Shown here in pieces: positions 3,892 to 54,523 of a stretch of 64,000 nucleotides of DNA. The position numbers were made by a program, and so were the translations under genes. How positions within the stretch are numbered: the stretch's first letter is position 1; every line of letters begins with the position of its first letter. The notes below the pieces were generated by a model that saw only the letters and a program-made list of their open reading frames with translations, had not been told where the DNA came from and made no database searches. Source of the DNA: Flavobacterium sp. (GTDB lineage: Bacteria; Bacteroidota; Bacteroidia; Flavobacteriales; Flavobacteriaceae); assembly GCA_010365135.1 (NCBI GenBank), contig JAAFGY010000001.1:11419-75418 (forward strand). The letters run 5' to 3'.

Positions 3892-5031
3892 ATGATTAAT
3901 AAAAGGCTTTTGATTAAAAATCTCCTTGCTCACAATGATGAGAGTAGTTTTTATGACAAAAAACGCCAGTTGAATTTGCATTCGCGCGAAGGGAAAGCCA
4001 AGTTTTTGAAACATATTTGCGCCTTATCCAACTCGAATCCTACCAATAGTTCCTATATCGTTGTGGGTGTCGAAGATCACGATAACGAAATTGTAGGCGA
4101 CGATTTTTTTGACGACAGTCGGATTCAGAATTTAGTAAATGCTTATTTGGAAAATCCACCAAAAATTCAATACGAGAATGTTCCTTTTCCTAATTTGCCA
4201 AAAGATAAAGTGGTGGGATTAGTAACTATAAAAGCCAAAAGTAAAACCTCACATTTTAAAAAAGGAATTCACACGATTCCCGCCAACACTGTTTTTATTC
4301 GTCGAGGCAGCAACACCGTTCCTACTGAAGAGGAAATCGAAAAAAATTATCAAAACACGGAAACCGTCATTGGCATTGAAAATAATTCAAGAAATAGTAT
4401 TGGTTACACTCTCGATGGTGTGATTGATTTTATGAATTTTCGGCACAAGGATATGGCGCCAAAATACAAGGTTTTCAAGGAATTATTTGTCATTTGTTGG
4501 GCTGGTGTTCCTAAAAAATCTAGAGACAAAACCTTTCTATCACGTGTTGATATTGAGTTAATAAACGAGCAAATCAAACTGTTTTATTCGGCTCAAGATG
4601 TAGTCACGATTACTTTTGACGAGGATTCTTTTACGATTATCGAATATGTTCCTTTGGGTTTGAATGACAAAACAAGCTTTTATCCGTTAGAAAAACAAAC
4701 CATTTATTTTCACGATAATGGCTATTATAAAATTGACCGAGAAATCCTTTTTCAGCCGCCAGAATTCAATCGAAAAATGTTGTTTCATATTTATAATTCG
4801 AACATTTCCTTGTTGAACAAACTTCAAAAAGGACTTTCGTTAACGGAGCGAGAACAGAAAGATTTAGAAAATTTACCCTCGACATTTATGATTTGTTGCC
4901 TCAACGGATTTGAAGAAGCCAAGCAAAAATTGATAGACGCCAAACCACTTTTGAAACCTTTCACTTCTGTATATTTGTCCTTTAAAGAAGCTTTGCGGAT
5001 TTTGAGAAAAATGAAGTATGATGTGCAATAA
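3892..5031 (+). CDS. Schlafen/AlbA_2-domain protein with uncharacterised C-terminal region
   Basis: ESSFYDKK, KHICALSN, YIVVGVED N-terminal pattern of AlbA_2. Confidence 0.7.
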   Translation: MINKRLLIKNLLAHNDESSFYDKKRQLNLHSREGKAKFLKHICALSNSNPTNSSYIVVGVEDHDNEIVGDDFFDDSRIQNLVNAYLENPPKIQYENVPFPNLPKDKVVGLVTIKAKSKTSHFKKGIHTIPANTVFIRRGSNTVPTEEEIEKNYQNTETVIGIENNSRNSIGYTLDGVIDFMNFRHKDMAPKYKVFKELFVICWAGVPKKSRDKTFLSRVDIELINEQIKLFYSAQDVVTITFDEDSFTIIEYVPLGLNDKTSFYPLEKQTIYFHDNGYYKIDREILFQPPEFNRKMLFHIYNSNISLLNKLQKGLSLTEREQKDLENLPSTFMICCLNGFEEAKQKLIDAKPLLKPFTSVYLSFKEALRILRKMKYDVQ

Positions 5032-9752: not shown

Positions 9753-10127
9753 TTATTCTTTTTTCAAGACAATACTTATAGGATTATAAATTTGAGGAAT
9801 TTGTTTTGGATCGTTTTTATAAGTAGTGATTTTACCTTTTATACAGACATTTTTATCTTTCAAATCTTCGATTTTGATGTTTAGTTTTTCGAGGTAACTG
9901 TTTGAAATTACCACCGTAAAAACGCTCTCAGGATACGGCTTGTCTATGTTGATGTAATTGGTGGATTTACCCTCGGAGGCAAGTTTGAAGGAAACCACTT
10001 TTCCTATTACACAAACTTCTTTATCCATATAATCCTTGGCCTTGGCGGTGGTAATAGTGTCTTGCGAAAAACAATTTACCGATAAAACCAGAAGAAAAGC
10101 TATTGCAAAATTTTTCATTGTAAGCAT
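9753..10127 (-). CDS. Small exported OB-fold protein (putative nucleic-acid binding); alternative start 10118
   Basis: Signal peptide ending FSQ; pattern AKDYMDKEVCVIGKV...YINIDKPYP...FTVVI...VCIKGKITTY typical of stand-alone OB folds. Confidence 0.65.
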   Translation of the reverse strand: MLTMKNFAIAFLLVLSVNCFSQDTITTAKAKDYMDKEVCVIGKVVSFKLASEGKSTNYINIDKPYPESVFTVVISNSYLEKLNIKIEDLKDKNVCIKGKITTYKNDPKQIPQIYNPISIVLKKE

Positions 10128-10136
10128 TTTTTAAAA

Positions 10137-11240
10137 TTATTTTACTTCTTTTAATAAATAAATATAAACTGGAAAGTGGTCGCTATAGCCTATTTCGTTT
10201 TCCGAATGTCGAAGAGGATACCCGGCGTATCTTCCGAATTTTTCGATCATAAACGGTTTGTTATAAATTCCGGCTTTCCAATATTCAAAAGTAGAATAAT
10301 CATTCTTAATCAACGTTTCGGAAACCATAATCTGGTCAAATATATCTCCAGCATCACGATAGAATAATGATGAATTGCCCTCTTTTGCCATTTGTTCGAA
10401 AGGATTATAAACACCAAATTGTTGTACTTCTGCTTTAGTTAATTTTGCTCCAAGTCCCACTTTTACACTTTTATTATAGGTTCCGTCGTTTAGATCGCCC
10501 ATTAAAATGATTTTGGCTTTTGGATTTACTTTATAAACAGAATCCATCACTTTTCGCGCTAATCTTCCTGCGGCTTCGCGAAATGGGCTACTTTTTTTCT
10601 CACCACCGGAACGTGACGGCCAGTGATTTACCATTAAATTTATTTCTTCGCCGTCAAGAAAACCGGTCACTAAGAGAATATCTCTGGTGTAAACTCTATT
10701 GTCGAAGGCAATTTCTATTTTATCTTTGTCGGCTTTGTCTTCTTCGGTTTCTTTATCTTTTTCATTATTATTTCCTCGATAAATAATTAAGGGAATATTG
10801 ATAAAACTGGTAGGTTTAAAATATTTTTTTTGATATAAAAGTCCTACATCAATACCTCTTTTGTCAGGAGAATCAAAGTGCACAATTCCATAATCGTCTT
10901 TAATGATATTTGGTTGTTTTACTAAATCTTCAAGCACGCCACGGTTTTCGATTTCGGAACATCCAATAAAAGTGGGTGCTTCTTTTTGCATATCATTGGT
11001 ACCGATTTGCATCAATACTTTCGACAGATTTTCTAATTTTTGTTTGTATTTAGCTGAAGTCCAACGCTGAAGCCCTTTTGGAGTCCATTCCTCATCAAAA
11101 TTTGGGTTGTTAATAGTGTCGAATAAATTTTCGAAATTATAAAATGCAACTGTATGTACAATATATTTTTTCTGTTGGGCATTTGCCTGAATTACTGAAG
11201 AAAAAACAAACAAAACAGCAATAAAACTTTTAATTTTCAT
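10137..11240 (-). CDS. Exported endonuclease/exonuclease/phosphatase (EEP, DNase I-like) protein
   Basis: Signal peptide ending ANAQ; FYNFENLF, SEIEN, NHWPS, MGDLND, FDQI, YSDHFPV motifs. The ATG at 11240 fits the upstream promoter better than the track start. Confidence 0.88.
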   Translation of the reverse strand: MKIKSFIAVLFVFSSVIQANAQQKKYIVHTVAFYNFENLFDTINNPNFDEEWTPKGLQRWTSAKYKQKLENLSKVLMQIGTNDMQKEAPTFIGCSEIENRGVLEDLVKQPNIIKDDYGIVHFDSPDKRGIDVGLLYQKKYFKPTSFINIPLIIYRGNNNEKDKETEEDKADKDKIEIAFDNRVYTRDILLVTGFLDGEEINLMVNHWPSRSGGEKKSSPFREAAGRLARKVMDSVYKVNPKAKIILMGDLNDGTYNKSVKVGLGAKLTKAEVQQFGVYNPFEQMAKEGNSSLFYRDAGDIFDQIMVSETLIKNDYSTFEYWKAGIYNKPFMIEKFGRYAGYPLRHSENEIGYSDHFPVYIYLLKEVK

Positions 11241-11284
11241 GATTAGATAATATTTTAATGTGAATTTTAACAAAAACTTAAGAG

Positions 11285-11292
11285 CAAAAGTA
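11285..11292 (-). promoter_or_regulatory. Sigma-A -7 element for the EEP nuclease/OB-fold genes
   Basis: TACTTTTG on the minus strand. Confidence 0.5.
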
Positions 11293-11312
11293 GATAATAA
11301 AAATTATAAATG

Positions 11313-11320
11313 TAGTTTTG
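11313..11320 (+). promoter_or_regulatory. Sigma-A -7 element for the TonB receptor/DUF5689 genes
   Basis: TAGTTTTG matches TAnnTTTG. Confidence 0.5.
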
Positions 11321-11374
11321 TAACCGTTAAGAATGATTATTTCTTGACAAATACGAATTAACCTTTTACTATTT

Positions 11375-14140
11375 ATGAAAAAAATTATTTTTAGTACATT
11401 ATTTGTAATGCAAATAGTGTTTGCCTTTGGACAATCAAATGCTGGTATTACTGGTAAATTGATTGATTCTAAAACACAAAAACCAATTCAAAGTGTTGTT
11501 GTGTCGATTCAAAATACCAATTTAATGCAACTTTCTGACTCCAATGGAAAGTTTTCTTTTGACAAAGTGGAACTGGGAAACCAAATAGTCCGCCTCAAAA
11601 CTAACGGCTACAAGGAACAATTACTTCAAATTGAAATTATTGAAGGGCAGTTATTGAATTTAGGAACTGTAACGATGGAAGAAGACATCACCACGGAGCA
11701 ACAATCTACCCTAATAACTATTACTGACAATGATTTGAGTGACGACAATAGTGGCTCCGAAAGTACTGCAGGATTACTACAAGCCTCAAAAGACGTGTTT
11801 TTGCAAGCTGCTGCCTATAATTTTGGACAAGCAAGATTTAGCGTTAGAGGTATTGATAATGAATATTCGAATGTAATGATTAATGGCATCACCATGAATC
11901 GTGTTGCCGATGGAAGACCACAATACGGCGACTGGGGAGGATTGAATGATGCTACTCGAAACCAAGAATATACTAATGGTTTAGCGCCCTCCGATTATAC
12001 TTTTGGTGGAATTGCTGGAACACAATTTATAAACACACGAGCCTCTATTTACAGACCCGGAACAAGAATTTCTTACCTGAACACAAATACTAATTATAGT
12101 AATAGAGTTATGGTAACTCACGCCTCAGGAATGGATAAAGACGGCTGGGCTTATGTGATTTCTGGCGGAAGACGTTGGGCTCAAAATGGATACTTCGAAG
12201 GAACTACTTATGATGCAAATTCTTTGTTCGCTAGTATTGAAAAGAAAATCAACGACCACCACAGCCTTAACTTTACCTCGATTTATGCACAAAATATAAG
12301 AGGAAAAAATTCTCCAAATACTGCCGAACAATCTGATTTAGCAGGCGAAAAATACAATTCATATTGGGGATATCAAGAGGGTGAAAAAAGAAATTCAAGA
12401 GTTAAAAAAACCGAAGAGCCTATGTTTATGTTGTCGCATTATTGGAAAGTTAATCCAAAAACAAACTTAAACACTACTGTTTCTTATCAAACTGGTCAAA
12501 TAGGAAATAGCCGTTTGGATTATACCAAAGCGGACAATCCTGATCCTATTTATTATAGAAAATTACCAAGTTTTTATACCAATTCTTTTGATGCCAATAA
12601 TAATTATGTTGGAAACACTCCAAAATATATTGCATTAGCAGAACAACAAAAAATCAATTTCCTTGACAACAAGCAATTAGACTGGAAAGATTTGTACCGA
12701 ATCAACGATGAAAGTTTAGCAAATGGCAGCCGAATAGTATTGTATGAAGATAGAAGTGACGAAAACATTGCCACATTCAATACAAGGTTAAACACTCAAC
12801 TATCGGATAATGTTATAATGACAGCCGGTGCAAACTATTTAGATTCTAAAACAAAGAATTTTAAAAATATGATTGACCTTTTAGGGGGAACCTATTTTGC
12901 AGATAAAAGTACTTTTGGTAAAGGACCCCAACAATTTTCAGATTTGAACAATCCAAACAGAACGGTGGGCGTTGGCGAGCATTATGGTTACAATTATAAT
13001 ATCGATGTTACTAAATTAGATGCTTTTACCCAATTTAAATTTACGTACAAAAAAGTAGATTTCTATTTAGCACAAACCTTTTCACGCTCCAGTTATTTAA
13101 GAGAGGGTTTATATAAAAATGGCTATTATGAGAATAATTCTTATGGAAAAAGCGAAAAAGTTTTCTTCGATAACTTTGGTTTCAAAGGCGGCATGACTTA
13201 TAAATTATCTGGAAGAAATTTTATTGACGTCAATGCAGTTTATATGACTAAAGCACCTAACTCAAAAGATGTTTTTCCAAACTCTCGTGTAAACAATGAC
13301 ATAACTCCGGACATTACTAACGAAAACATCAAAGGTGGAGATGTAAGTTATATTGTTAAAGCTCCAAAATTCAAAGCGCGTTTTACAGGATATTTCTCTG
13401 AAACCTTAAACTCAACTGACATCAGTTTCTATTATGCTGATGCAGTAAGTAGTGCTGGAAATGGAGCATTTGTATCAGAAGTAGTAACTGGTTTAAATAA
13501 AAAAAATAGAGGTGTTGAAGTGGGTCTGGAATATCAATTGACTTCTACCATAAAAGTTACTGGTGTTGCTGCTTATGGCGAATATCTGCTAACAAATAAT
13601 CCAAACGTAAGTTTATCCGATGATGCTTCGGCAACAGTCACAAATTACGGAAAAACTAAATTAGAGGGTTTAAGACAATCCGGAATGCCGCAACAGGCTT
13701 ATTCATTTGGAATAGAATACAGAGACCCAAAATTCTGGTGGATTGGGGCCAATGCCAATTATCTAGCAGACAATTATCTTGATGTTTCCTCCATTAGAAG
13801 AACCGATAACTTCTATACTAATATTGACAATGCCGGATTAACAATTGATCAAGCATTAGCAGACAAATATTTGAAACAAGAAAAATTTGATTCCTTCTTT
13901 TTGTTTAACTTAGTAGGAGGAAAATCTTGGAGAATCAAAGGAAACACTTTAGGACTTTTTGCAACCGTAAATAATGTTTTAGACATTACCTATAAAACAG
14001 GTGGTTTCGAGCAATCAAGAAATGCTACTTACAGACAAGAATTTGAAGATCATCAAAGTAGCGGAGCGAGTGTATTTGCTCCAAAATATTTCTATGGATA
14101 TGGAAGATCATATATGGTAAATCTATATTTAACCTTTTAA
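11375..14140 (+). CDS. TonB-dependent receptor with N-terminal carboxypeptidase-regulatory-like domain (non-SusC type)
   Basis: Signal peptide; plug FSVRGIDNEYSNVMING; beta-barrel pattern; C-terminal YLTF; 921 aa. Confidence 0.88.
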   Translation: MKKIIFSTLFVMQIVFAFGQSNAGITGKLIDSKTQKPIQSVVVSIQNTNLMQLSDSNGKFSFDKVELGNQIVRLKTNGYKEQLLQIEIIEGQLLNLGTVTMEEDITTEQQSTLITITDNDLSDDNSGSESTAGLLQASKDVFLQAAAYNFGQARFSVRGIDNEYSNVMINGITMNRVADGRPQYGDWGGLNDATRNQEYTNGLAPSDYTFGGIAGTQFINTRASIYRPGTRISYLNTNTNYSNRVMVTHASGMDKDGWAYVISGGRRWAQNGYFEGTTYDANSLFASIEKKINDHHSLNFTSIYAQNIRGKNSPNTAEQSDLAGEKYNSYWGYQEGEKRNSRVKKTEEPMFMLSHYWKVNPKTNLNTTVSYQTGQIGNSRLDYTKADNPDPIYYRKLPSFYTNSFDANNNYVGNTPKYIALAEQQKINFLDNKQLDWKDLYRINDESLANGSRIVLYEDRSDENIATFNTRLNTQLSDNVIMTAGANYLDSKTKNFKNMIDLLGGTYFADKSTFGKGPQQFSDLNNPNRTVGVGEHYGYNYNIDVTKLDAFTQFKFTYKKVDFYLAQTFSRSSYLREGLYKNGYYENNSYGKSEKVFFDNFGFKGGMTYKLSGRNFIDVNAVYMTKAPNSKDVFPNSRVNNDITPDITNENIKGGDVSYIVKAPKFKARFTGYFSETLNSTDISFYYADAVSSAGNGAFVSEVVTGLNKKNRGVEVGLEYQLTSTIKVTGVAAYGEYLLTNNPNVSLSDDASATVTNYGKTKLEGLRQSGMPQQAYSFGIEYRDPKFWWIGANANYLADNYLDVSSIRRTDNFYTNIDNAGLTIDQALADKYLKQEKFDSFFLFNLVGGKSWRIKGNTLGLFATVNNVLDITYKTGGFEQSRNATYRQEFEDHQSSGASVFAPKYFYGYGRSYMVNLYLTF

Positions 14141-14152
14141 AAATTAATCATT

Positions 14153-15556
14153 ATGAAAAATAAAATAAAAAATATATGTATCCTTATTGCATCGGCTGGG
14201 TTATTATCGAGCTGTGTGAATGATACTTTTAACACTCCCACATTTGATGATTGTGTTAGTCCAGGTTTGACAAAAACCAAAACAATTGCCGATATTTATG
14301 CTATTGCCAAAAATCCGGTAGCAACAGCGCCAAGTGTGGTTCCGAATACGCCAACATACACTGCCGACGATATTATTGAAGCTTATGTAGTTTCAAGTGA
14401 CGAAGGCGGAAATTTTTATAAAAGTATGTATTTCCAAGCTGTAGATGGTTCAAAAGGATTCAACCTTTCTGTAGATGAAGTAAATGCTTACACCAAACAT
14501 TTGCAACCCGGTAAAAAAGTGTTTTTAAAACTAAAAGGTTTGGCTTATGCAAATCCAACTAGTTTTGGTGTTGGTTTAATCTTTGGAGCAAAACCTACCG
14601 AGCAATATGCTGTGGATAGATTATCAGGTTTAGAATATAAAAAATATTTAATTCCTTCCTGCGATGCCGTTAGTGAAGATGCTATTATCCATAAAATCAC
14701 TTTGGCTCAAGTTGGCGATGCTTACTTAAACACCCTAGTGGAATTTGACAATGTTGAGTTTGCCGATGAATCTGCCGGTGGAACATACGATTCAGTACTG
14801 TCAGATGATTATGATTCAAGTATATTCATTACCGATGGTTCAAAAACGCTAACCATTAGAACAAGTCGATTTGCGAATTTTGCAGGTTCAAAAGTCCCTA
14901 CTGGAAGAGGAAAAATAAGAGGTGTATTGACTAAATACAATTCTACCTATCAAATTATAATGAGAACAGAACGCGACGTAAATATGCCAAATCCAAGAGT
15001 AGATTATTCGCCTGCACTTGTTGGTACAAATTCCACTGTTTTCCCTGGAACTGTAAACGAAACTTTCGAAAGTTATGCTACTTCTCAAACTAATTTTCCC
15101 AATTATATCAATGATGCAGCCGTAGGTTCAAGATATTGGGGAGTGACATCATTTAATTCTAATAAATACATCCAAATGACTTCGTTTGGTTCTGGTGGTT
15201 CTAATAATGCTTATTTATTGGTTCCTGTAAATATGACGACTGCTAATAATTTTTCGTTCAAATCGAATGTGGGGTATTGGAATGGTGCCGTTTTGAATGT
15301 GTATTACGTTTTAGCCACTGATTATATTGCTGGCGGAAAGGTAGATGTTTCTAAAATGGTAAATATTACCTCCAAATTCATAATCCCTTCAACACCAACC
15401 TCTGGTTATGGAACTGGTTTTGCTGCAAGTGGAGTTTATGCAATTCCAGCAACGGTAACGGGTAACGGGTATTTTGTGTTTGAATATGCCGGAAATGCTG
15501 CTGCTTTCCCTGCCGTAACTTCCACTTTACAATTGGATAATATTACAGTAAATTAA
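14153..15556 (+). CDS. DUF5689-family surface lipoprotein
   Basis: Lipobox LSSC; EAYVVSSDEGGNFYKSMYFQ and IRTSRFANFA...GVLTKYNSTYQII segments; C-terminal beta-sandwich-like region. Confidence 0.72.
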   Translation: MKNKIKNICILIASAGLLSSCVNDTFNTPTFDDCVSPGLTKTKTIADIYAIAKNPVATAPSVVPNTPTYTADDIIEAYVVSSDEGGNFYKSMYFQAVDGSKGFNLSVDEVNAYTKHLQPGKKVFLKLKGLAYANPTSFGVGLIFGAKPTEQYAVDRLSGLEYKKYLIPSCDAVSEDAIIHKITLAQVGDAYLNTLVEFDNVEFADESAGGTYDSVLSDDYDSSIFITDGSKTLTIRTSRFANFAGSKVPTGRGKIRGVLTKYNSTYQIIMRTERDVNMPNPRVDYSPALVGTNSTVFPGTVNETFESYATSQTNFPNYINDAAVGSRYWGVTSFNSNKYIQMTSFGSGGSNNAYLLVPVNMTTANNFSFKSNVGYWNGAVLNVYYVLATDYIAGGKVDVSKMVNITSKFIIPSTPTSGYGTGFAASGVYAIPATVTGNGYFVFEYAGNAAAFPAVTSTLQLDNITVN

Positions 15557-15574
15557 TAATTTTTGAATAAATTT

Positions 15575-15607
15575 AAAAAGGCTTCCACAACGGAAGCCTT
15601 TTTTTTG
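15575..15607 (+). terminator. Intrinsic terminator after DUF5689
   Basis: AGGCTTCC-acaac-GGAAGCCT followed by a T run. Confidence 0.8.
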
Positions 15608-15661
15608 ATTTATACTTAAATCATAGTTCGAAAAATACCCAAAAGTCCTTAATTTAATGAC

Positions 15662-15669
15662 TAACTTTG
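15662..15669 (+). promoter_or_regulatory. Sigma-A -7 element for the endonuclease gene
   Basis: TAACTTTG 21 nt before the ATG at 15691. Confidence 0.55.
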
Positions 15670-15690
15670 CTTTCCAAATTTTTTTTAAAA

Positions 15691-17655
15691 ATGAAAAATA
15701 CCTTTACCCTACTTATATCCCTTCTCACTTATTTTTCCTATGGACAAGTGGTTATCAACGAACTGGATTGTGACACTCCAAGTACTGACGACAAAGAATT
15801 TATCGAATTAAAATCAACTACACCACTTTTTCCCCTTGACGGTTATGTTTTAGTATTTTTTAATGGAAATCCCACGGGAAGCACAGCAAACAGCAGCTAT
15901 CTTACCATCAACCTCAATGGATTGACTACAGATGTCAATGGAATAATTCTTATTGGAAATACCCTCATTTCTCCGGTTCCTGAAAAAATAATTTCTGACA
16001 ATCTTATTCAAAATGGTCCTGACGGCGTTGGTCTTTATCTAGGAAGTACCTCAGATTTTCCATTAAATACTTTGGCAACAAAAGTGAATTTAATCGATGC
16101 ACTCGTTTATGATACAATCGACATAGATGCTACAGTATTGATGGGTTTATTGGGTGTTACTACACAATATGACGAAGGTCAAAACAACCTTCAAATGACA
16201 CAATCCATTCAAAGAAAAAACGACGGAACCTACGAAACCAAAGCACCAACTCCCGGAGCTAATAACGACGGAAGCGGAATAATTTTTAACGGAATTACAA
16301 TAACCACAAACACAGCCGACAAAAATGAAGGAGATAGCTTCCCTATTACTTTCACCACACAAACAAATGTAACCAGTGATTTAACATTTTCTTTTTCGCT
16401 AAATAATTCTACGTTCACAACCGCCGATTTTACGGGAAACACTATCATAACTATTCCTTCGGGTTCCAAAAGTTTTACCACGACTATTACTTTAACAGAT
16501 GATATTTTAGACGAAGGTGACGAAGTTTTAAAAATTAGATTTGGAACAATTCCAGCAACATACAACCGCCTTAATGATAATATCTTAGTTCGTGTTATTG
16601 ATAATGATTATGTGGTAGCACCTTATGGAACGCCATTAAATCCAACCTACGGCATCGTTTCTAGCACTAGTCCAACCGGATATTATGATGCTCTCGAAGG
16701 GCTTTCGGGTGCCGCTTTGAAACAAGCCGTTCAAAATATTATAGCAGATCCAGCCGTGGTTCACGCTCAAAATTACGGTGACATCATAGATATTCTAAAA
16801 AAAGCCGATCAAAATCCTAAAAATAGCAATCAAGTTTGGTTAATGTACGTAGAAAAACCACGATCAAAACTTGATTTTCAAGAAACTGGAATCAACACCG
16901 GAAAATGGAATCGCGAACACATTTACCCGCAATCGCGTGGCGGTTACACCGATGGCACTTCAAGTACTGCTGATGGAATAAATATTTGGTTGCCTACAAA
17001 TGCCGACGATATTCTTGCGGGTCACGGCGATGCACACCACATTCGTGCCGAAGATGGGGCAGAAAACAGCCTTCGCAACAATAATGATTATGGATTAACA
17101 GGTTACAATGGACCGGTCGGAACAATGGGTTCTTGGAAAGGCGATGTGGCACGTTCTGTATTTTATATGGCCGTTCGCTACAATGCTTTAAGCGTTGTCA
17201 ATGGCGATATTCCCGATACAACCGTTGGGCAATTGGGCGATTTAGCTTCTTTGTTATTGTGGAATAGTTTAGATCCTTCGGATGATTTTGAGATGAACAG
17301 AAATAATTACATTTACACCTGGCAAGTCAATAGAAATCCGTTTATTGATTATCCCGATTTGGCGAATTATATTTGGGGAGCCAAAGTGGGTCAAGCTTGG
17401 CATTCCAATTTATCGACTACTAATTTTATCAATCTTGGTATAAATTTGTACCCGAATCCCGCCAAAAAATCCATTACTATTTCAGGTTTGAATGAAAAGG
17501 CAAAGATCGAAATATACAATACCATTGGAGCGAAAGTAGTAGAAAAAACATTCACAGGAGAAACAAAAATAGACATCGATTTGCCTTCAGGAATTTATTT
17601 TGCCAAAATCAATTCAGAGGACAAAACCGTTGTCAAAAAAATTTTAATTGAGTAA
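15691..17655 (+). CDS. T9SS-secreted endonuclease I (His-Me finger) with N-terminal lamin-tail-like and Calx-beta-like domains
   Basis: VINELDCD...EFIEL (LTD-like); WNREHIYPQS, DAHHIRAED, KGDVARSVFYMAVRY, RNPFIDYP; type-A CTD LYPNPA...SGIYFAKI...VKKILIE. Confidence 0.88.
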   Translation: MKNTFTLLISLLTYFSYGQVVINELDCDTPSTDDKEFIELKSTTPLFPLDGYVLVFFNGNPTGSTANSSYLTINLNGLTTDVNGIILIGNTLISPVPEKIISDNLIQNGPDGVGLYLGSTSDFPLNTLATKVNLIDALVYDTIDIDATVLMGLLGVTTQYDEGQNNLQMTQSIQRKNDGTYETKAPTPGANNDGSGIIFNGITITTNTADKNEGDSFPITFTTQTNVTSDLTFSFSLNNSTFTTADFTGNTIITIPSGSKSFTTTITLTDDILDEGDEVLKIRFGTIPATYNRLNDNILVRVIDNDYVVAPYGTPLNPTYGIVSSTSPTGYYDALEGLSGAALKQAVQNIIADPAVVHAQNYGDIIDILKKADQNPKNSNQVWLMYVEKPRSKLDFQETGINTGKWNREHIYPQSRGGYTDGTSSTADGINIWLPTNADDILAGHGDAHHIRAEDGAENSLRNNNDYGLTGYNGPVGTMGSWKGDVARSVFYMAVRYNALSVVNGDIPDTTVGQLGDLASLLLWNSLDPSDDFEMNRNNYIYTWQVNRNPFIDYPDLANYIWGAKVGQAWHSNLSTTNFINLGINLYPNPAKKSITISGLNEKAKIEIYNTIGAKVVEKTFTGETKIDIDLPSGIYFAKINSEDKTVVKKILIE

Positions 17656-17659
17656 AAAT

Positions 17660-18661
17660 ATGCGGAATAATCGGTTTTCATTTAAAAAAAGGGACGCTGT
17701 TTTTTATAAACTTCTAATGCTTATTTTTGTTTTACAATTTTCCACTATTCAAGCGCAAACACCTATGAAAATTCCGCCCAGTTTACAAAAAGGAGATACT
17801 GTAGCCATTTTGGCAACCGCAAGAAAAAACATCGATAACAATCTAAAACCAGCCATAGATTTGCTACACAGTTGGGGATTGGAAGTCGTAATTGGCAAAA
17901 CGATAGGATTGGATGACAATCAATTAGCAGGAACCGATGCACAACGCGCCGAAGATTTTCAGCATCAATTGGACAATCCAAATATTAAAGCGATTTGGTG
18001 CGTTCGCGGTGGTTATGGAACCGTTCGAATAATAGATTTGTTGGATTTTACCCAATTCAAACAAAACCCAAAATGGATTGTTGGTTTCAGCGATGTCACC
18101 ATTCTCCACAGTTATTTAAATAAATTAAAAATCGCTTCTCTTCACGCCGCAATGCCTGTAACAGTCGCAAAAGCAACGCCAGAAACTATCGAAAGTTTAC
18201 GCAAAGCTCTTTTTGGCGAAAGCCTGAAATATGAAATTCCATCCGATGCCACCAACCGTTTGGGGAATGCAAAAGGCGAAATCGTAGGCGGAAATTTATC
18301 CATTTTATACAGTTTGATGGGCTCGAACGCGCAAATCGATTGCAAAGGAAAAATTCTTTTTATCGAAGATATCGACGAATATTTATACCACATCGATCGA
18401 ATGATGATGAGCCTAAAACGCTGTGGTTGTTTTGACAATTTGAATGCCTTAATTGTGGGTGGAATGACCAAAATGAGAGATAACGACATTCCGTGGGGGA
18501 AAAACGCCAACCAAATTATACAAGAGGTGACCAAAGGATATTCTTTTCCCATACTATATAATTTCCCCGCAGGACATTTTCACGACAACAGAGCTTTGAT
18601 TTTGGGCAAACAAGTTTCTTTAGAAATAAACAAAGCCTCTTCAAAACTGATTTTCGAATGA
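17660..18661 (+). CDS. LD-carboxypeptidase (peptidase S66)
   Basis: RGGYG, GFSDVT (catalytic Ser), GGNLS, FIED, GH motifs. Start uncertain (17648 TTG or 17660 ATG). Confidence 0.9.
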   Translation: MRNNRFSFKKRDAVFYKLLMLIFVLQFSTIQAQTPMKIPPSLQKGDTVAILATARKNIDNNLKPAIDLLHSWGLEVVIGKTIGLDDNQLAGTDAQRAEDFQHQLDNPNIKAIWCVRGGYGTVRIIDLLDFTQFKQNPKWIVGFSDVTILHSYLNKLKIASLHAAMPVTVAKATPETIESLRKALFGESLKYEIPSDATNRLGNAKGEIVGGNLSILYSLMGSNAQIDCKGKILFIEDIDEYLYHIDRMMMSLKRCGCFDNLNALIVGGMTKMRDNDIPWGKNANQIIQEVTKGYSFPILYNFPAGHFHDNRALILGKQVSLEINKASSKLIFE

Positions 18662-18768
18662 AGATTAACGGTTTTAAATTGCAGATTTATTCGTTTTACT
18701 GATCTTTCCAATCTGAAATCTTCTCCACCAATCAAAAATCAAAAATCGTTAATCAAAAATCTAAAATC
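18662..18768. repeat. Heptamer-periodic intergenic array (AATC family)
   Basis: AATC at 18730, 18737, 18744, 18751, 18758, 18765 (exact period 7); degenerate complementary left arm with AGAT at 18662 and 18683. Confidence 0.8.
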
Positions 18769-18771
18769 CTC

Positions 18772-19131
18772 ATGGCCGAACACAACGATTTAGGAAAACT
18801 AGGAGAAGAATTGGCTGTCGAATTTCTTCAGAAATACGGCTATACAATTCTAGAAACTAACTGGGTTTTTCAGAAGGCAGAAGTTGATATTATTGCCAAA
18901 AAAGAGAATATACTAGCTATTGTTGAGGTAAAAACGCGCTCTTCGTTAGATTTTGGTTTGCCGCAAGACTTTGTAAAACCAAAAAAAATCCAACTTTTGG
19001 TAAAAGCCGTAAACGAATATGTTATTTCAAATGATTTGGATGTTGAAGTCCGTTTCGACATTATAGCTGTTCATAAAGAAGGCAAATCTTTTGCTATGGA
19101 ACATTTAATTGACGCTTTTTATCATTTTTAA
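18772..19131 (+). CDS. yraN: YraN-family (UPF0102) endonuclease-like protein
   Basis: LGKLGEELA, EVDII, VEVKTR, RFDIIAV motifs. Confidence 0.92.
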   Translation: MAEHNDLGKLGEELAVEFLQKYGYTILETNWVFQKAEVDIIAKKENILAIVEVKTRSSLDFGLPQDFVKPKKIQLLVKAVNEYVISNDLDVEVRFDIIAVHKEGKSFAMEHLIDAFYHF

Positions 19132-19228: not shown

Positions 19229-19885
19229 ATGAAAACCGTTTCTTCTATTGTCGAAAATTACATCAAAACAAAGCCTTTTTTATTGAATGCATTGTCCCTT
19301 GGAATAATCAATTTGACTTCTTTGTCCAGAAATATTATGGTCGAATTGGAGTCTGATTTTGGTAAAGAAGTCAAACAAGGTGCAGTTGTAATGGCACTAA
19401 AAAGACTCACCGAAGAATTGGATTTTAGACTGAATCACAAGATTAATAAGGTTATAAAAAACATTGGCGAAATCACGGTTCGTTCGTCATTGACCGATTA
19501 TACTTTTGCAGCATCGGAAACTGTTTTGAACAAACAAGCCGATTTAATTACCGATATCAACACCTTTTCAGATATTTTTTATACTTCTTCAAGAGGGGTA
19601 AACGAAACTAATATTGTGGTGAGTAACACCGTAAATCATTTGGTTGACAAACATTTTGCAAACGAAAAACTGATCCAAAAATTAGAAAATCTGGCTTCGA
19701 TTACGGTAAAACTACCCAAAGAAAATATTGTCGTTCCAGGAATTTATTATTTCATTTTCCAACGGTTGGCTTGGGAAGGAATCATCATCAACGAAGTAAT
19801 TTCGACTTCAAACGAGTTCACTATTTTAGTAAGCGAAGACGAAGTGGATGTAGCTTTTAAAGTGATTAAGGATTTGAAGAATTAA
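19229..19885 (+). CDS. ACT-domain protein lacking a kinase domain (often auto-annotated aspartate kinase)
   Basis: C-terminal ACT-like PGIYYFIFQRLAWEGIIINEVISTSNEFTILV; helical N-terminus; 218 aa is too short for aspartokinase. Confidence 0.7.
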   Translation: MKTVSSIVENYIKTKPFLLNALSLGIINLTSLSRNIMVELESDFGKEVKQGAVVMALKRLTEELDFRLNHKINKVIKNIGEITVRSSLTDYTFAASETVLNKQADLITDINTFSDIFYTSSRGVNETNIVVSNTVNHLVDKHFANEKLIQKLENLASITVKLPKENIVVPGIYYFIFQRLAWEGIIINEVISTSNEFTILVSEDEVDVAFKVIKDLKN

Positions 19886-52444: not shown

Positions 52445-54523
52445 CTAAAAAAGATAGCTCAAGTTGATGCCACCAAAATAATTTCTGGGATTTCCAGGAT
52501 AATAGTAACGAGGTTGTACATTTCCAAAACCTACAGCATTAGGTAAAATACTGGCCGCATAATGGGTGTTGCTAACATTATTGATTCCAGCGTTTAACTC
52601 CGTTTTTAGCCTTTTCAAAATGGTAAAAGCATAGCTTGTTTTAACATCTAAAAGGCTGTAGGCTTGAGTATATTTGGAGTTTTGATCATTCATTGGAATT
52701 TTACCCACTTTTCTAAAAGAAGTATATAGGCTAAAACCACTTTTAGTACTTGCATTAAGCCCAAAATTCGATTGTGATGCGGGAGCTCCCGTGAGTTCGT
52801 TGCCAGAATAATCCTTGCCTACATCTACAAAGTCTTTGAATTTAAAGTGATTCACAGTTCCTGAAATCGTAGCGCTAAGTTGCCATTGCTCCGTTTTTAC
52901 CAACTGATAATTTAACAAATATTCTAAACCAATATGGGAACTTTCACCCGCATTGATTCCTATATATTGATCGTTGGCAGTTCGGTTTGCCACTAATAAA
53001 TTTGTAATTTGACAGCTATATAGCGCTATTTCTGTGTATAATTTATGGTTTAACCAATTTCCTTTGAAACCCAATTCATAGTTCCAGCCTATTTCTGGTT
53101 TTAATTTGGTGTTGATTTGCCCTGTTGGAGTTAAAGTTTCTGCAACAGCTGGTGTCGAAAAACCTTTGCTTATGGAGGTGTAAAAGTTTTTAGCTTTAGC
53201 AATCTGATACGAAAGACCAGCCCTTGGCGACCATACAGACCCAAAAGAATAGGACTGCTTTGGGTTATTACTATTGGGTTCGAAAACATCTTGCAAAGTA
53301 TATTGTGTCGTGTTGAATGCCAAACCTGTTTCGAGATGCAACGCTTTGGTCAATGAGAAATCCATTTGCAAAAAATAATTGCTGTACTTTCTGTTTTGCT
53401 TCATTTTACTGAATTCAGCTCCAGCGATACTTCCTTGATTGGGTTGCGATAGATACCCATTTTTGAATAGCGAAACTCCATATTTTTCAGTAGCTAATTC
53501 CGTTCCTAAACTCCCCTCGAAAGGAATAGATAACAACGTACTTTTATAATTTAAAACCGAACGCAAGCCAATAGTACTTGTTTTTTCATCCAGAATATCA
53601 AAAGGTCTCGCCTCATACGCCTTTTTGTAATTGGAAAAAATACTGCTTACAAAATTCCATTTGTCTGATAGTTTATAACTGTAGCCAATTCCCACCAGCA
53701 ATTTATCATAGGATTCATATCCTTGTGATGCAGCCCAAGTAAATGCGGCCTTCTCCGGATGATTTTCATAATCGGTTTCATTGATAGAACTTGGGATAAA
53801 AGCTTTCAATCTGGTAAAAATTCCAATGAATGATAAGCTTCCGTTCTGCTTTATTTTTTGCTTTCCGTGGAAATTAAATGATTTTCGATCATAAGCGGAA
53901 TTTTGGCGAAAGCCGTCACTTTGTAAATGAGAATAACTCGTATATACATTAGAGTTGGTAGTGGCAAACGCTCCCGAAAGTGTTTGTTTTACAAACCCGA
54001 AACTACCATAAGTGGTGGTTGATTTCCCTTCTAATTGTTGAAAACTAGCTTCTGTTGCCAAGAGATGAATTACTCCGCCAAGACCCGAACCAAAACTGGT
54101 AGAATTTGGTCCTTTGATAATTTCAATACTGCCAATGGATTCTAAATCAACATCTTCAATACTAGATTCCCCCTCAGCGGATGTCAACGGAATATTTTCA
54201 AAGTAAGTTTTTAATCTCGTAGTCCCATATTGAGCACGAGCCCCTATTCCTCTTATCGTAATCCGGTTTGTATTCAAGGTGCCTTGCAGCATAAAAACAC
54301 CAGAGATTTTGTTCAAAACAGCCGTAAGAATGACACCATCTGTTGTATTAAGTTCCTTTCTGTCAATAACCGAAACGGAATAAGCTGCGTTTTGAAGGGA
54401 AGTTTTTATAGGGGAAGTCACTATCTTAATTTCAGAAAGGGAAATAGTATCTTTTTTAACTTGACTAGAAACAAGATATACTGCAAAGAAAATTAGAAAA
54501 AAAGAAATTATATTTTTATGCAA
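52445..54523 (-). CDS. TonB-dependent receptor (YncD/PqqU-like plug)
   Basis: Plug TIRGIGARAQYG...IEIIKGPNSTSFGSGLGGVI; barrel; C-terminal YLF. Confidence 0.88.
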   Translation of the reverse strand: MHKNIISFFLIFFAVYLVSSQVKKDTISLSEIKIVTSPIKTSLQNAAYSVSVIDRKELNTTDGVILTAVLNKISGVFMLQGTLNTNRITIRGIGARAQYGTTRLKTYFENIPLTSAEGESSIEDVDLESIGSIEIIKGPNSTSFGSGLGGVIHLLATEASFQQLEGKSTTTYGSFGFVKQTLSGAFATTNSNVYTSYSHLQSDGFRQNSAYDRKSFNFHGKQKIKQNGSLSFIGIFTRLKAFIPSSINETDYENHPEKAAFTWAASQGYESYDKLLVGIGYSYKLSDKWNFVSSIFSNYKKAYEARPFDILDEKTSTIGLRSVLNYKSTLLSIPFEGSLGTELATEKYGVSLFKNGYLSQPNQGSIAGAEFSKMKQNRKYSNYFLQMDFSLTKALHLETGLAFNTTQYTLQDVFEPNSNNPKQSYSFGSVWSPRAGLSYQIAKAKNFYTSISKGFSTPAVAETLTPTGQINTKLKPEIGWNYELGFKGNWLNHKLYTEIALYSCQITNLLVANRTANDQYIGINAGESSHIGLEYLLNYQLVKTEQWQLSATISGTVNHFKFKDFVDVGKDYSGNELTGAPASQSNFGLNASTKSGFSLYTSFRKVGKIPMNDQNSKYTQAYSLLDVKTSYAFTILKRLKTELNAGINNVSNTHYAASILPNAVGFGNVQPRYYYPGNPRNYFGGINLSYLF

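Follow-up and report, generated by a model that had tools for sequence, protein, structure and literature searches.

Described DNA-uptake systems and the Flavobacterium locus

Natural transformation in Riemerella anatipestifer was found to require RA0C_RS04915, an outer-membrane protein with a CarbopepD_reg domain, and RA0C_RS04920, which combines DUF5689 and DUF5017, and this pair was proposed to bind and import DNA (Huang et al., 2021; PMC8459023). Homologs of the two proteins were reported from Flavobacterium at 59.6% and 40.2% identity, and in F. columnare an extra DUF5017 gene lies between the pair (PMC8459023). Deletion of tonBA or tonBB lowers the transformation frequency of R. anatipestifer (PMC8383284). 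In Bacteroides thetaiotaomicron, the “DNA-utilization locus” ddbABCDEF encodes three active nucleases (DdbA, DdbB and DdbF), the transporter DdbC, the DUF5689 protein DdbD, and DdbE, and is needed for depletion of DNA and for production of uracil and xanthine (Sharan et al., 2025; PMC12478041). The same study called the ddb locus similar to a polysaccharide utilization locus (PUL-like) and evolutionarily related to the Riemerella locus, where the nuclease beside the pair, RA0C_RS04910, is homologous to ddbB; the model of DdbD resembled the HIN domain of p202, which binds double-stranded DNA (dsDNA). Here we describe a related five-gene locus at positions 9753-17655 of a 64,000-nt stretch of DNA (hereafter the window) from a metagenome bin of Flavobacterium sp. 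We consider it fairly probable that this Flavobacterium locus belongs to the Bacteroidota system for uptake and processing of extracellular DNA, built around a DdbC-type transporter, a DUF5689 lipoprotein and a divergently encoded, exported EEP nuclease.

A preliminary description of the window had recognized five exported proteins and treated their genes as one unit. All five contiguous open reading frames (ORFs) were confirmed. They encode, in order of position, an OB-fold protein, an EEP (DNase I-like) nuclease, a TonB-dependent transporter, a DUF5689 lipoprotein and an endonuclease I with a C-terminal domain of the type IX secretion system (T9SS). The single unit was not retained: the genes occupy two strands and three transcription units, with the endonuclease gene transcribed separately, and only three of the five are broadly conserved. 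The start codons given earlier for the EEP and endonuclease I genes were moved, to 11240 and 15691, respectively. The suspicion that a comparable DNA-catabolism locus had already been reported from Bacteroides was correct (PMC12478041).

The Riemerella pair is the closest characterized relative. It comes from the same order (Flavobacteriales) and has the same arrangement of a CarbopepD_reg transporter followed by a DUF5689 protein with a DUF5017/choice-of-anchor-J C-terminal part, together with an exported nuclease. This comparison was made through the published description, and the divergent orientation of the nuclease gene was seen in the loci of Weeksellaceae that we examined. The Flavobacterium locus adds the T9SS endonuclease I and the exported OB-fold protein, whereas in Weeksellaceae the nuclease gene is followed by one for a DUF6146 lipoprotein. 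Transformation is documented for Riemerella, but is not known from Flavobacterium.

The ddb locus of B. thetaiotaomicron follows the same logic, with one or more secreted nucleases, the transporter DdbC, its DUF5689 partner DdbD, and a nuclease with a signal for signal peptidase I (SPI) that is presumed to be periplasmic. Both loci are PUL-like, lack SusD and carbohydrate-active enzymes (CAZymes), and encode DUF5689 proteins with models resembling p202 HIN. The two organisms belong to different orders, and the secreted nucleases are signal peptidase II (SPII) lipoproteins in B. thetaiotaomicron but T9SS endonuclease I cargo here. An equivalent of DdbE is not present in the Flavobacterium locus, and the OB-fold protein is not found in B. 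thetaiotaomicron. The terms ‘T9SS’, ‘OB-fold’ and ‘endonuclease’ are absent from the text of Sharan et al. (PMC12478041), so the accessory set seen here was not described there. The published ddb subtypes (Bt1, Bt2, Pv1 and Pv2) are delimited by >50% identity and >75% coverage to DdbC (e.g., WP_008762511.1; PMC12478041). Because the two orders are so distant, the Flavobacterium locus is expected to lie outside all four. Subtypes that exchange one nuclease for another have already been published, and so has the general concept: the locus is real and coherent, but not new in kind.

A third point of comparison is provided by EndA1 and EndA2 of F. johnsoniae (Fjoh_4721 and Fjoh_4723), which combine a lamin tail domain (LTD) with Endonuclease_1, are induced by phosphate depletion, and were detected in the exoproteome (Lidbury et al., 2020; PMC8115612). 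Compared by description, both are Endonuclease_1 exoproteins from the genus of the window, and their N-terminal part is of the LTD type, as in endonuclease I of the window. They differ in not being encoded beside a transporter and in having an fn3 domain, which was undetected in endonuclease I. No DUF5689 or PF19580 entries were found in the supplements of that study (PMC8115612).

A canonical SusC/SusD PUL likewise has a CarbopepD_reg transporter gene directly followed by a lipoprotein gene and flanked by genes for degradative enzymes. Unlike such a PUL, the Flavobacterium locus has no SusD, SusC signature or glycoside hydrolases, and its lipoprotein is built from OB/HIN-like domains. The absence of SusD and CAZymes noted in the preliminary description was borne out by Pfam and NCBIfam scans, which detected no SusD, SusC-type model, glycoside hydrolase or other CAZyme in the locus or its flanks. 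Judged by its sequence architecture, the locus is a member of the DdbC-DdbD/Riemerella-type family and not a canonical SusCD PUL.

A conserved module of three genes

To survey the gene neighborhood, 80 related loci were collected by a scan with a DUF5689 alignment, using one genome per species. They represent Flavobacterium and the Weeksellaceae genera Chryseobacterium, Kaistella, Soonwooa, Epilithonimonas and Moheibacter, and are referred to by L-numbers. The proteins of the locus were compared by BLASTP with all ORFs of the 80 loci, and the EEP gene was counted only in the 69 loci whose upstream part was long enough. The transporter gene was located directly upstream of the DUF5689 gene in all 80 loci, and in 68 of the 69 assessable ones the EEP gene pointed away from the transporter gene. 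With adjacency this consistent, the clustering is not due to chance. The broadly conserved module is three genes, encoding the transporter, the DUF5689 lipoprotein and the EEP nuclease, and the Weeksellaceae loci share this triad at ~35% identity. Rarity of nucleases beside receptor and DUF5689 homologs had been named in the preliminary description as the outcome that would speak against it; the EEP counts revealed the reverse. The OB gene was present in 7/66 loci and the endonuclease I gene in 3/68 species-level loci.

The transporter (positions 11375-14140, plus strand; 921 aa) has an N-terminal CarbopepD_reg extension (CarbopepD_reg_2, E=5e-11) and ends in a C-terminal Phe. Against Pfam, the Plug domain scored 23.0 bits, with a cutoff of 23.9, and no barrel was matched. 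A Chryseobacterium protein above the Pfam thresholds for both Plug and TonB_dep_Rec_b-barrel aligned end to end with residues 127-921 (E=7e-37), indicating a genuine but divergent TonB-dependent transporter. There was no match at all in NCBIfam, and hence no SusC-type signature. A sequence search of the PDB gave no informative match, even at E<=10, and a profile of 24 transporter sequences matched only N-terminal-extension domains there. By homology, the protein appears to be a transporter of the DdbC/RA0C_RS04915 type. A second receptor in the window (52445-54523, minus strand) is canonical, with Plug and TonB_dep_Rec_b-barrel at 134 bits; in this it is unlike the divergent DdbC-type transporter, in which Pfam misses the barrel.

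The DUF5689 gene (14153-15556, plus strand) starts after a gap of 12 nt and encodes 467 aa with a match to PF18942 (E=4e-52) and a lipobox, LLSSC, read from the sequence. Exposure of the lipoprotein at the cell surface is assumed. The protein matched the NCBIfam model NF052645 (M949_1556 family lipoprotein) over its full length (E=2e-85), with 287.4 bits against a cutoff of 475, and was 34% identical end to end to protein P0174, which scores 627 bits on the same model. On these scores it is a homolog outside the curated NF052645 subfamily. An AlphaFold2 model was confident only for residues 40-280, with a predicted local distance difference test (pLDDT) of 80-90. Foldseek matched the N-terminal domain to p202 HIN1 (4l5q; E=2.4e-3, probability 0.99), IFI16 HIN (2oq0) and p204 HIN-dsDNA (5z7d), with moderate E-values, and the C-terminal domain to β-sandwiches of adhesins and of the carbohydrate-binding module type. 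The N-terminal domain is accordingly modeled as a HIN-like tandem OB domain, of the dsDNA-binding type by fold, and the C-terminal domain is a choice-of-anchor-J/DUF5017-type β-sandwich. We presume that the lipoprotein is of the DdbD/RA0C_RS04920 type and acts as a DNA-binding lid of the transporter. In 37 of the 80 loci (e.g., L017:9356-9988), but not in the window, the transporter and DUF5689 genes are separated by an extra gene of ~210 aa. Its product is unmatched in Pfam and resembles the C-terminal domain of the DUF5689 protein (residues 295-466); the gene is probably the one described as ‘DUF5017’ in F. columnare.

The EEP gene (10137-11240, minus strand) starts at the ATG at 11240 and encodes 367 aa matching Exo_endo_phos_3 (PF19580, E=6e-102). 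It holds the position of Riemerella RA0C_RS04910. The catalytic motifs N35/E37, ExENR, NHWPSR, GDxND and SDHFP were invariant in 70 orthologs, and a sequence search of the PDB gave no informative match, even at E<=10. The protein has an SPI signal and no T9SS domain, and is predicted to be a periplasmic nuclease/phosphodiesterase. SPI-type signals with Gln at +1 were read from the sequence in all four non-lipoproteins of the locus (FS/QD, NA/QQ, FG/QS and YG/QV, with the slash marking cleavage). Gln directly after the cleavage site is usual for SPI substrates of Bacteroidota.

The OB-fold protein and endonuclease I

The OB-fold protein and endonuclease I are accessories specific to a clade, fixed in one freshwater subclade of Flavobacterium that includes the cultured species F. 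limnophilum. The complete genome of F. limnophilum, CP114289.2, has the order AldDH-CorA-OB-EEP-transporter-DUF5689-EndoI-LDcp-YraN, identical to that in the window, where EndoI is endonuclease I and LDcp is LD-carboxypeptidase.

The OB gene (9753-10118, minus strand) was called as an ORF of 124 aa. All 233 homologs have 121 aa, and the start was therefore set to the ATG at 10118, giving a protein of 121 aa that begins with MKN. The match to Pfam tRNA_anti_2 was weak (E=7e-4, 20.2 bits, below the 27-bit cutoff). The AlphaFold2 model had a pLDDT of 82 and a pTM of 0.73, and Foldseek matched it to the anticodon-binding domains of class IIb aminoacyl-tRNA synthetases, Stn1 and RPA (probability 1.0, TMq 0.5-0.6). 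The OB fold is real according to this model, and a nucleic acid-binding type is predicted. There was no similarity between this protein and the DUF5689 protein of the locus. The cleavage motif F[SA]/QDTI was invariant among homologs, while an upstream Cys varied, indicating an SPI substrate and not a lipoprotein. The gene is located 18 nt downstream of the EEP gene, and the two are probably co-transcribed. Where it occurred among the relatives, it always followed the EEP gene directly, even at 37-52% identity, and its product is an accessory found in some Flavobacterium only. In Weeksellaceae, the slot after the EEP gene is filled by the DUF6146 lipoprotein, an aromatic-rich protein of ~140 aa (L056:5198-5617, minus strand, and 11 other loci), possibly a lineage-specific addition to the same DNA-uptake system. 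Identity of the OB-fold and DUF6146 proteins as a shared fourth component was considered and rejected, as the profile-profile match was confined to the signal peptides.

Endonuclease I (15691-17655, plus strand) starts at the ATG at 15691 and has 654 aa, the same length as more than 120 orthologs. It contains Endonuclease_1 (PF04231, E=2e-29, 103 bits with a cutoff of 25) and a type-A T9SS C-terminal domain (Por_Secre_tail, E=4e-14, 53 bits with a cutoff of 27; TIGR04183, 51 bits with a cutoff of 23). The domain order is a lamin-tail-like N-terminal part (the LTD match reached only E=0.09), an Ig-like middle part, Endonuclease_1 and the T9SS domain. The catalytic EH...N motif was recognized by eye, from the sequence only, in NREHIYP and ENSLRNN. 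The C-terminal domain matched PDB 8glk_D, annotated as ‘Endonuclease I’, and the Endonuclease_1 domain gave no informative match to PDB sequences, even at E<=10. The 654-aa ortholog adjoined the DUF5689 gene wherever we looked, including F. limnophilum and L082. In L049, the neighbor of DUF5689 is a convergent gene for a different, shorter T9SS endonuclease I, suggesting that an association of this kind arose a second time, independently. Across all loci, the two ORFs that follow DUF5689 (142 proteins) belonged to a mixture of housekeeping genes (e.g., HflX, LD-carboxypeptidase and PolA), without any further recurrent nuclease.

Transcriptional organization

The EEP and transporter genes are separated by an intergenic region of 134 nt (11241-11374), in which back-to-back Bacteroidetes -7 boxes (TAnnTTTG) were read from the sequence: one on the plus strand at ~11312-11319 and one as the reverse complement, CAAAAGTA, at ~11286-11293. 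The same divergent layout, with ~135 nt and twin boxes, was found in about 50 Flavobacterium loci (e.g., L018, L021, L010 and L032). An inverted repeat, GTTAAGAA...TTCTTGAC, lies at ~11325-11352, at the start of the transporter leader. A GTTAAG motif is conserved 5-8 nt past the plus-strand box and forms the 5′ arm of a hairpin in each sequence. The leader hairpins had a mean z of -1.5 across 53 non-redundant leaders. Despite these single-sequence hairpins, the transporter leaders yielded no consensus structure in RNAalifold, as their 3′ arms do not line up. The hairpin could be a stem-loop in the 5′ leader or a palindromic operator.

A strong bidirectional hairpin with a T-run, AAAAAGGCTTCC...GGAAGCCTTTTTTTT, is located at 15575-15603 (plus strand), just past the DUF5689 stop codon, and is kept, with compensatory changes, in L001, L003, L081 and L082, as well as in L002, which is without the endonuclease gene. 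Rfam gave only sub-threshold matches (Phe_leader and ctRNA). The hairpin is a predicted intrinsic terminator that would end the transporter-DUF5689 operon. The endonuclease I gene has its own TAnnTTTG box, TAACTTTG, at ~15660-15667. Together, the boxes and the terminator point to three transcription units, of which EEP-OB is read from the minus strand and the other two, transporter-DUF5689 and endonuclease I, from the plus strand.

Proposed function and alternative explanations

The gene content, homology, folds, synteny, intact catalytic motifs and transcription layout described above were combined into a working model. DNA as the ligand, the locations of the proteins, the order of the steps and their purpose are inferred from published homologs or from the architecture. 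In this model, the T9SS-secreted endonuclease I would cut environmental DNA to fragments, and the DUF5689 lipoprotein, covering the transporter like a lid, would bind DNA outside the cell through its HIN-like domain. The transporter would move the DNA into the periplasm using TonB-derived energy, and the EEP nuclease would degrade it there. The co-transcribed OB-fold protein would bind the incoming strand or oligonucleotides in the periplasm. The preliminary description had proposed much the same mechanism of fragmentation, binding, import and processing. It agrees with the models published for the homologs, and the homology, synteny and HIN-like fold were reproduced here.

For this freshwater Flavobacterium, the main payoff is probably salvage of nucleotides and phosphorus. 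We favor salvage because a secreted non-specific nuclease is encoded beside the importer and because related endonucleases respond to phosphate starvation. The same entry route possibly supplies DNA for transformation as well.

Several observations weigh against the proposed DNA-uptake and salvage function. The sequence after the lipobox Cys, CVNDT, does not strictly follow the C(x/xx)(D/E)(D/E) surface-export motif of Sharan et al. In the homolog studies cited here, DUF5689 is linked to DNA binding by structural similarity and not by biochemistry. The endonuclease I gene is missing from 65 of 68 species-level loci and forms a separate transcription unit, so that its functional coupling to the transporter is suggested by adjacency within one clade. 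DNA is a poor sole source of carbon, nitrogen or phosphorus for B. thetaiotaomicron (PMC12478041). No RNA-seq runs holding this sequence were found that could support expression in this organism. In R. anatipestifer CH3, disruption of M949_1556 changed lipopolysaccharide (LPS) antigenicity and virulence, a phenotype not obviously explained by DNA uptake; M949_1556 is a possible ortholog of RA0C_RS04920, and a protein-cluster look-up for a named Riemerella member returned only metagenome proteins and one Soonwooa protein.

The alternative that holds up best is that the three-gene core functions alone, with endonuclease I and the OB-fold protein as neighbors by descent and the endonuclease serving independently, for example in phosphate scavenging or remodeling of biofilm DNA. 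It overlaps with the other explanations and is not exclusive of them. The low frequencies of both accessory genes (3/68 and 7/66 loci), the conserved terminator and separate promoter box before the endonuclease gene, and the unrelated housekeeping genes found downstream elsewhere are all consistent with it, as is the description of EndA1 and EndA2 of F. johnsoniae as ‘orphan’ genes (PMC8115612). However, the shorter T9SS endonuclease I of L049 appears to have become associated with DUF5689 independently, and the OB gene still adjoins the EEP gene on its downstream side at identities as low as 37%. The five-gene form also persists in a clade where DUF5689 has diverged to ~65% identity. We therefore consider independence of the accessories unlikely, although it retains some weight.

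It is also unlikely, and slightly more so, that the core of transporter, DUF5689 lipoprotein and EEP nuclease mainly provides the outer-membrane step of natural transformation, passing DNA on to ComEC, DprA and RecA. Transformation requires the closest characterized relatives, which come from the same order and show identical three-gene synteny (PMC8459023), and the triad is shared by Weeksellaceae at ~35% identity. Against this, identical conditions gave no transformation of F. johnsoniae, which has all homologs (PMC8459023), and the secreted non-specific endonuclease that this clade has added beside the transporter would destroy transforming DNA. Furthermore, no competence genes (ComEC, DprA, ComF or ComEA-like helix-hairpin-helix proteins) were found within the 64-kb window, though they may lie elsewhere in the genome.

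That the transporter and DUF5689 handle a ligand other than DNA, such as another polyanion or an envelope component, with the DNA phenotypes elsewhere being indirect, is very improbable: the phenotype of M949_1556 (a gene only possibly orthologous to RA0C_RS04920), the lack of a direct DNA-binding assay in the homolog studies cited here, and the likeness of the DUF5689 C-terminal domain to adhesin and carbohydrate-binding β-sandwiches could be read in this way, but two independent genetic systems tie the pair to DNA, an exported nuclease is adjacent in 68/69 loci, and the N-terminal domain of DUF5689 is HIN-like.

Uptake and processing of extracellular DNA thus remains the preferred function. 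A more far-reaching version of it holds that the OB-fold protein is a previously undescribed periplasmic part of TonB-dependent DNA import that binds DNA or oligonucleotides, and that this clade has independently assembled a complete ddb-like locus of secreted nuclease, importer and periplasmic nuclease, with T9SS replacing lipoprotein export. The OB-fold protein might then serve as a ratchet comparable to ComEA, or it might pair with or modulate the nuclease. We regard this version as speculative and doubtful.

The locus extends the recently described DNA-uptake/utilization system of Bacteroidota to environmental, freshwater Flavobacterium. The transporter, DUF5689 and the divergent EEP nuclease are invariant, while the secreted nucleases, the OB-fold protein, DUF6146 and the extra paralog of the DUF5689 C-terminal domain are swapped. 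As a cultured species with the full five-gene version, F. limnophilum offers a system in which use of DNA as phosphorus source and transformation could be tested against each other. The question bears on the turnover of dissolved DNA and on gene exchange in lakes.

Neighboring genes

The window has a GC content of ~35% without a compositional break, and the locus is embedded in a conserved chromosomal synteny from AldDH to LD-carboxypeptidase-YraN-Mfd. An origin as a mobile element or island was rejected on these grounds.

Downstream of the locus, an LD-carboxypeptidase is encoded in the region 17648-19131. Its start is probably the ATG at 17660, 4 nt past the endonuclease I stop codon, and it may be co-transcribed with endonuclease I. 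It is followed by a gene of the YraN family (UPF0102, nuclease-like). In relatives without the endonuclease gene, the LD-carboxypeptidase and YraN genes directly follow DUF5689. Peptidoglycan-related genes of R. anatipestifer (DUF1343 and an amidase) affect transformation, and by analogy a link between the LD-carboxypeptidase/YraN pair and transformation is conceivable.

Upstream of the locus, a Schlafen AlbA_2 and DUF5929 protein of 379 aa is encoded at 3892-5031 (plus strand), and one is also found near the locus in L082. A 218-aa protein at 19229-19885 (plus strand) matched no family above threshold, with weak similarity to DUF7523 and ACT_7, and keeps its position after YraN in L001, L081 and L082.

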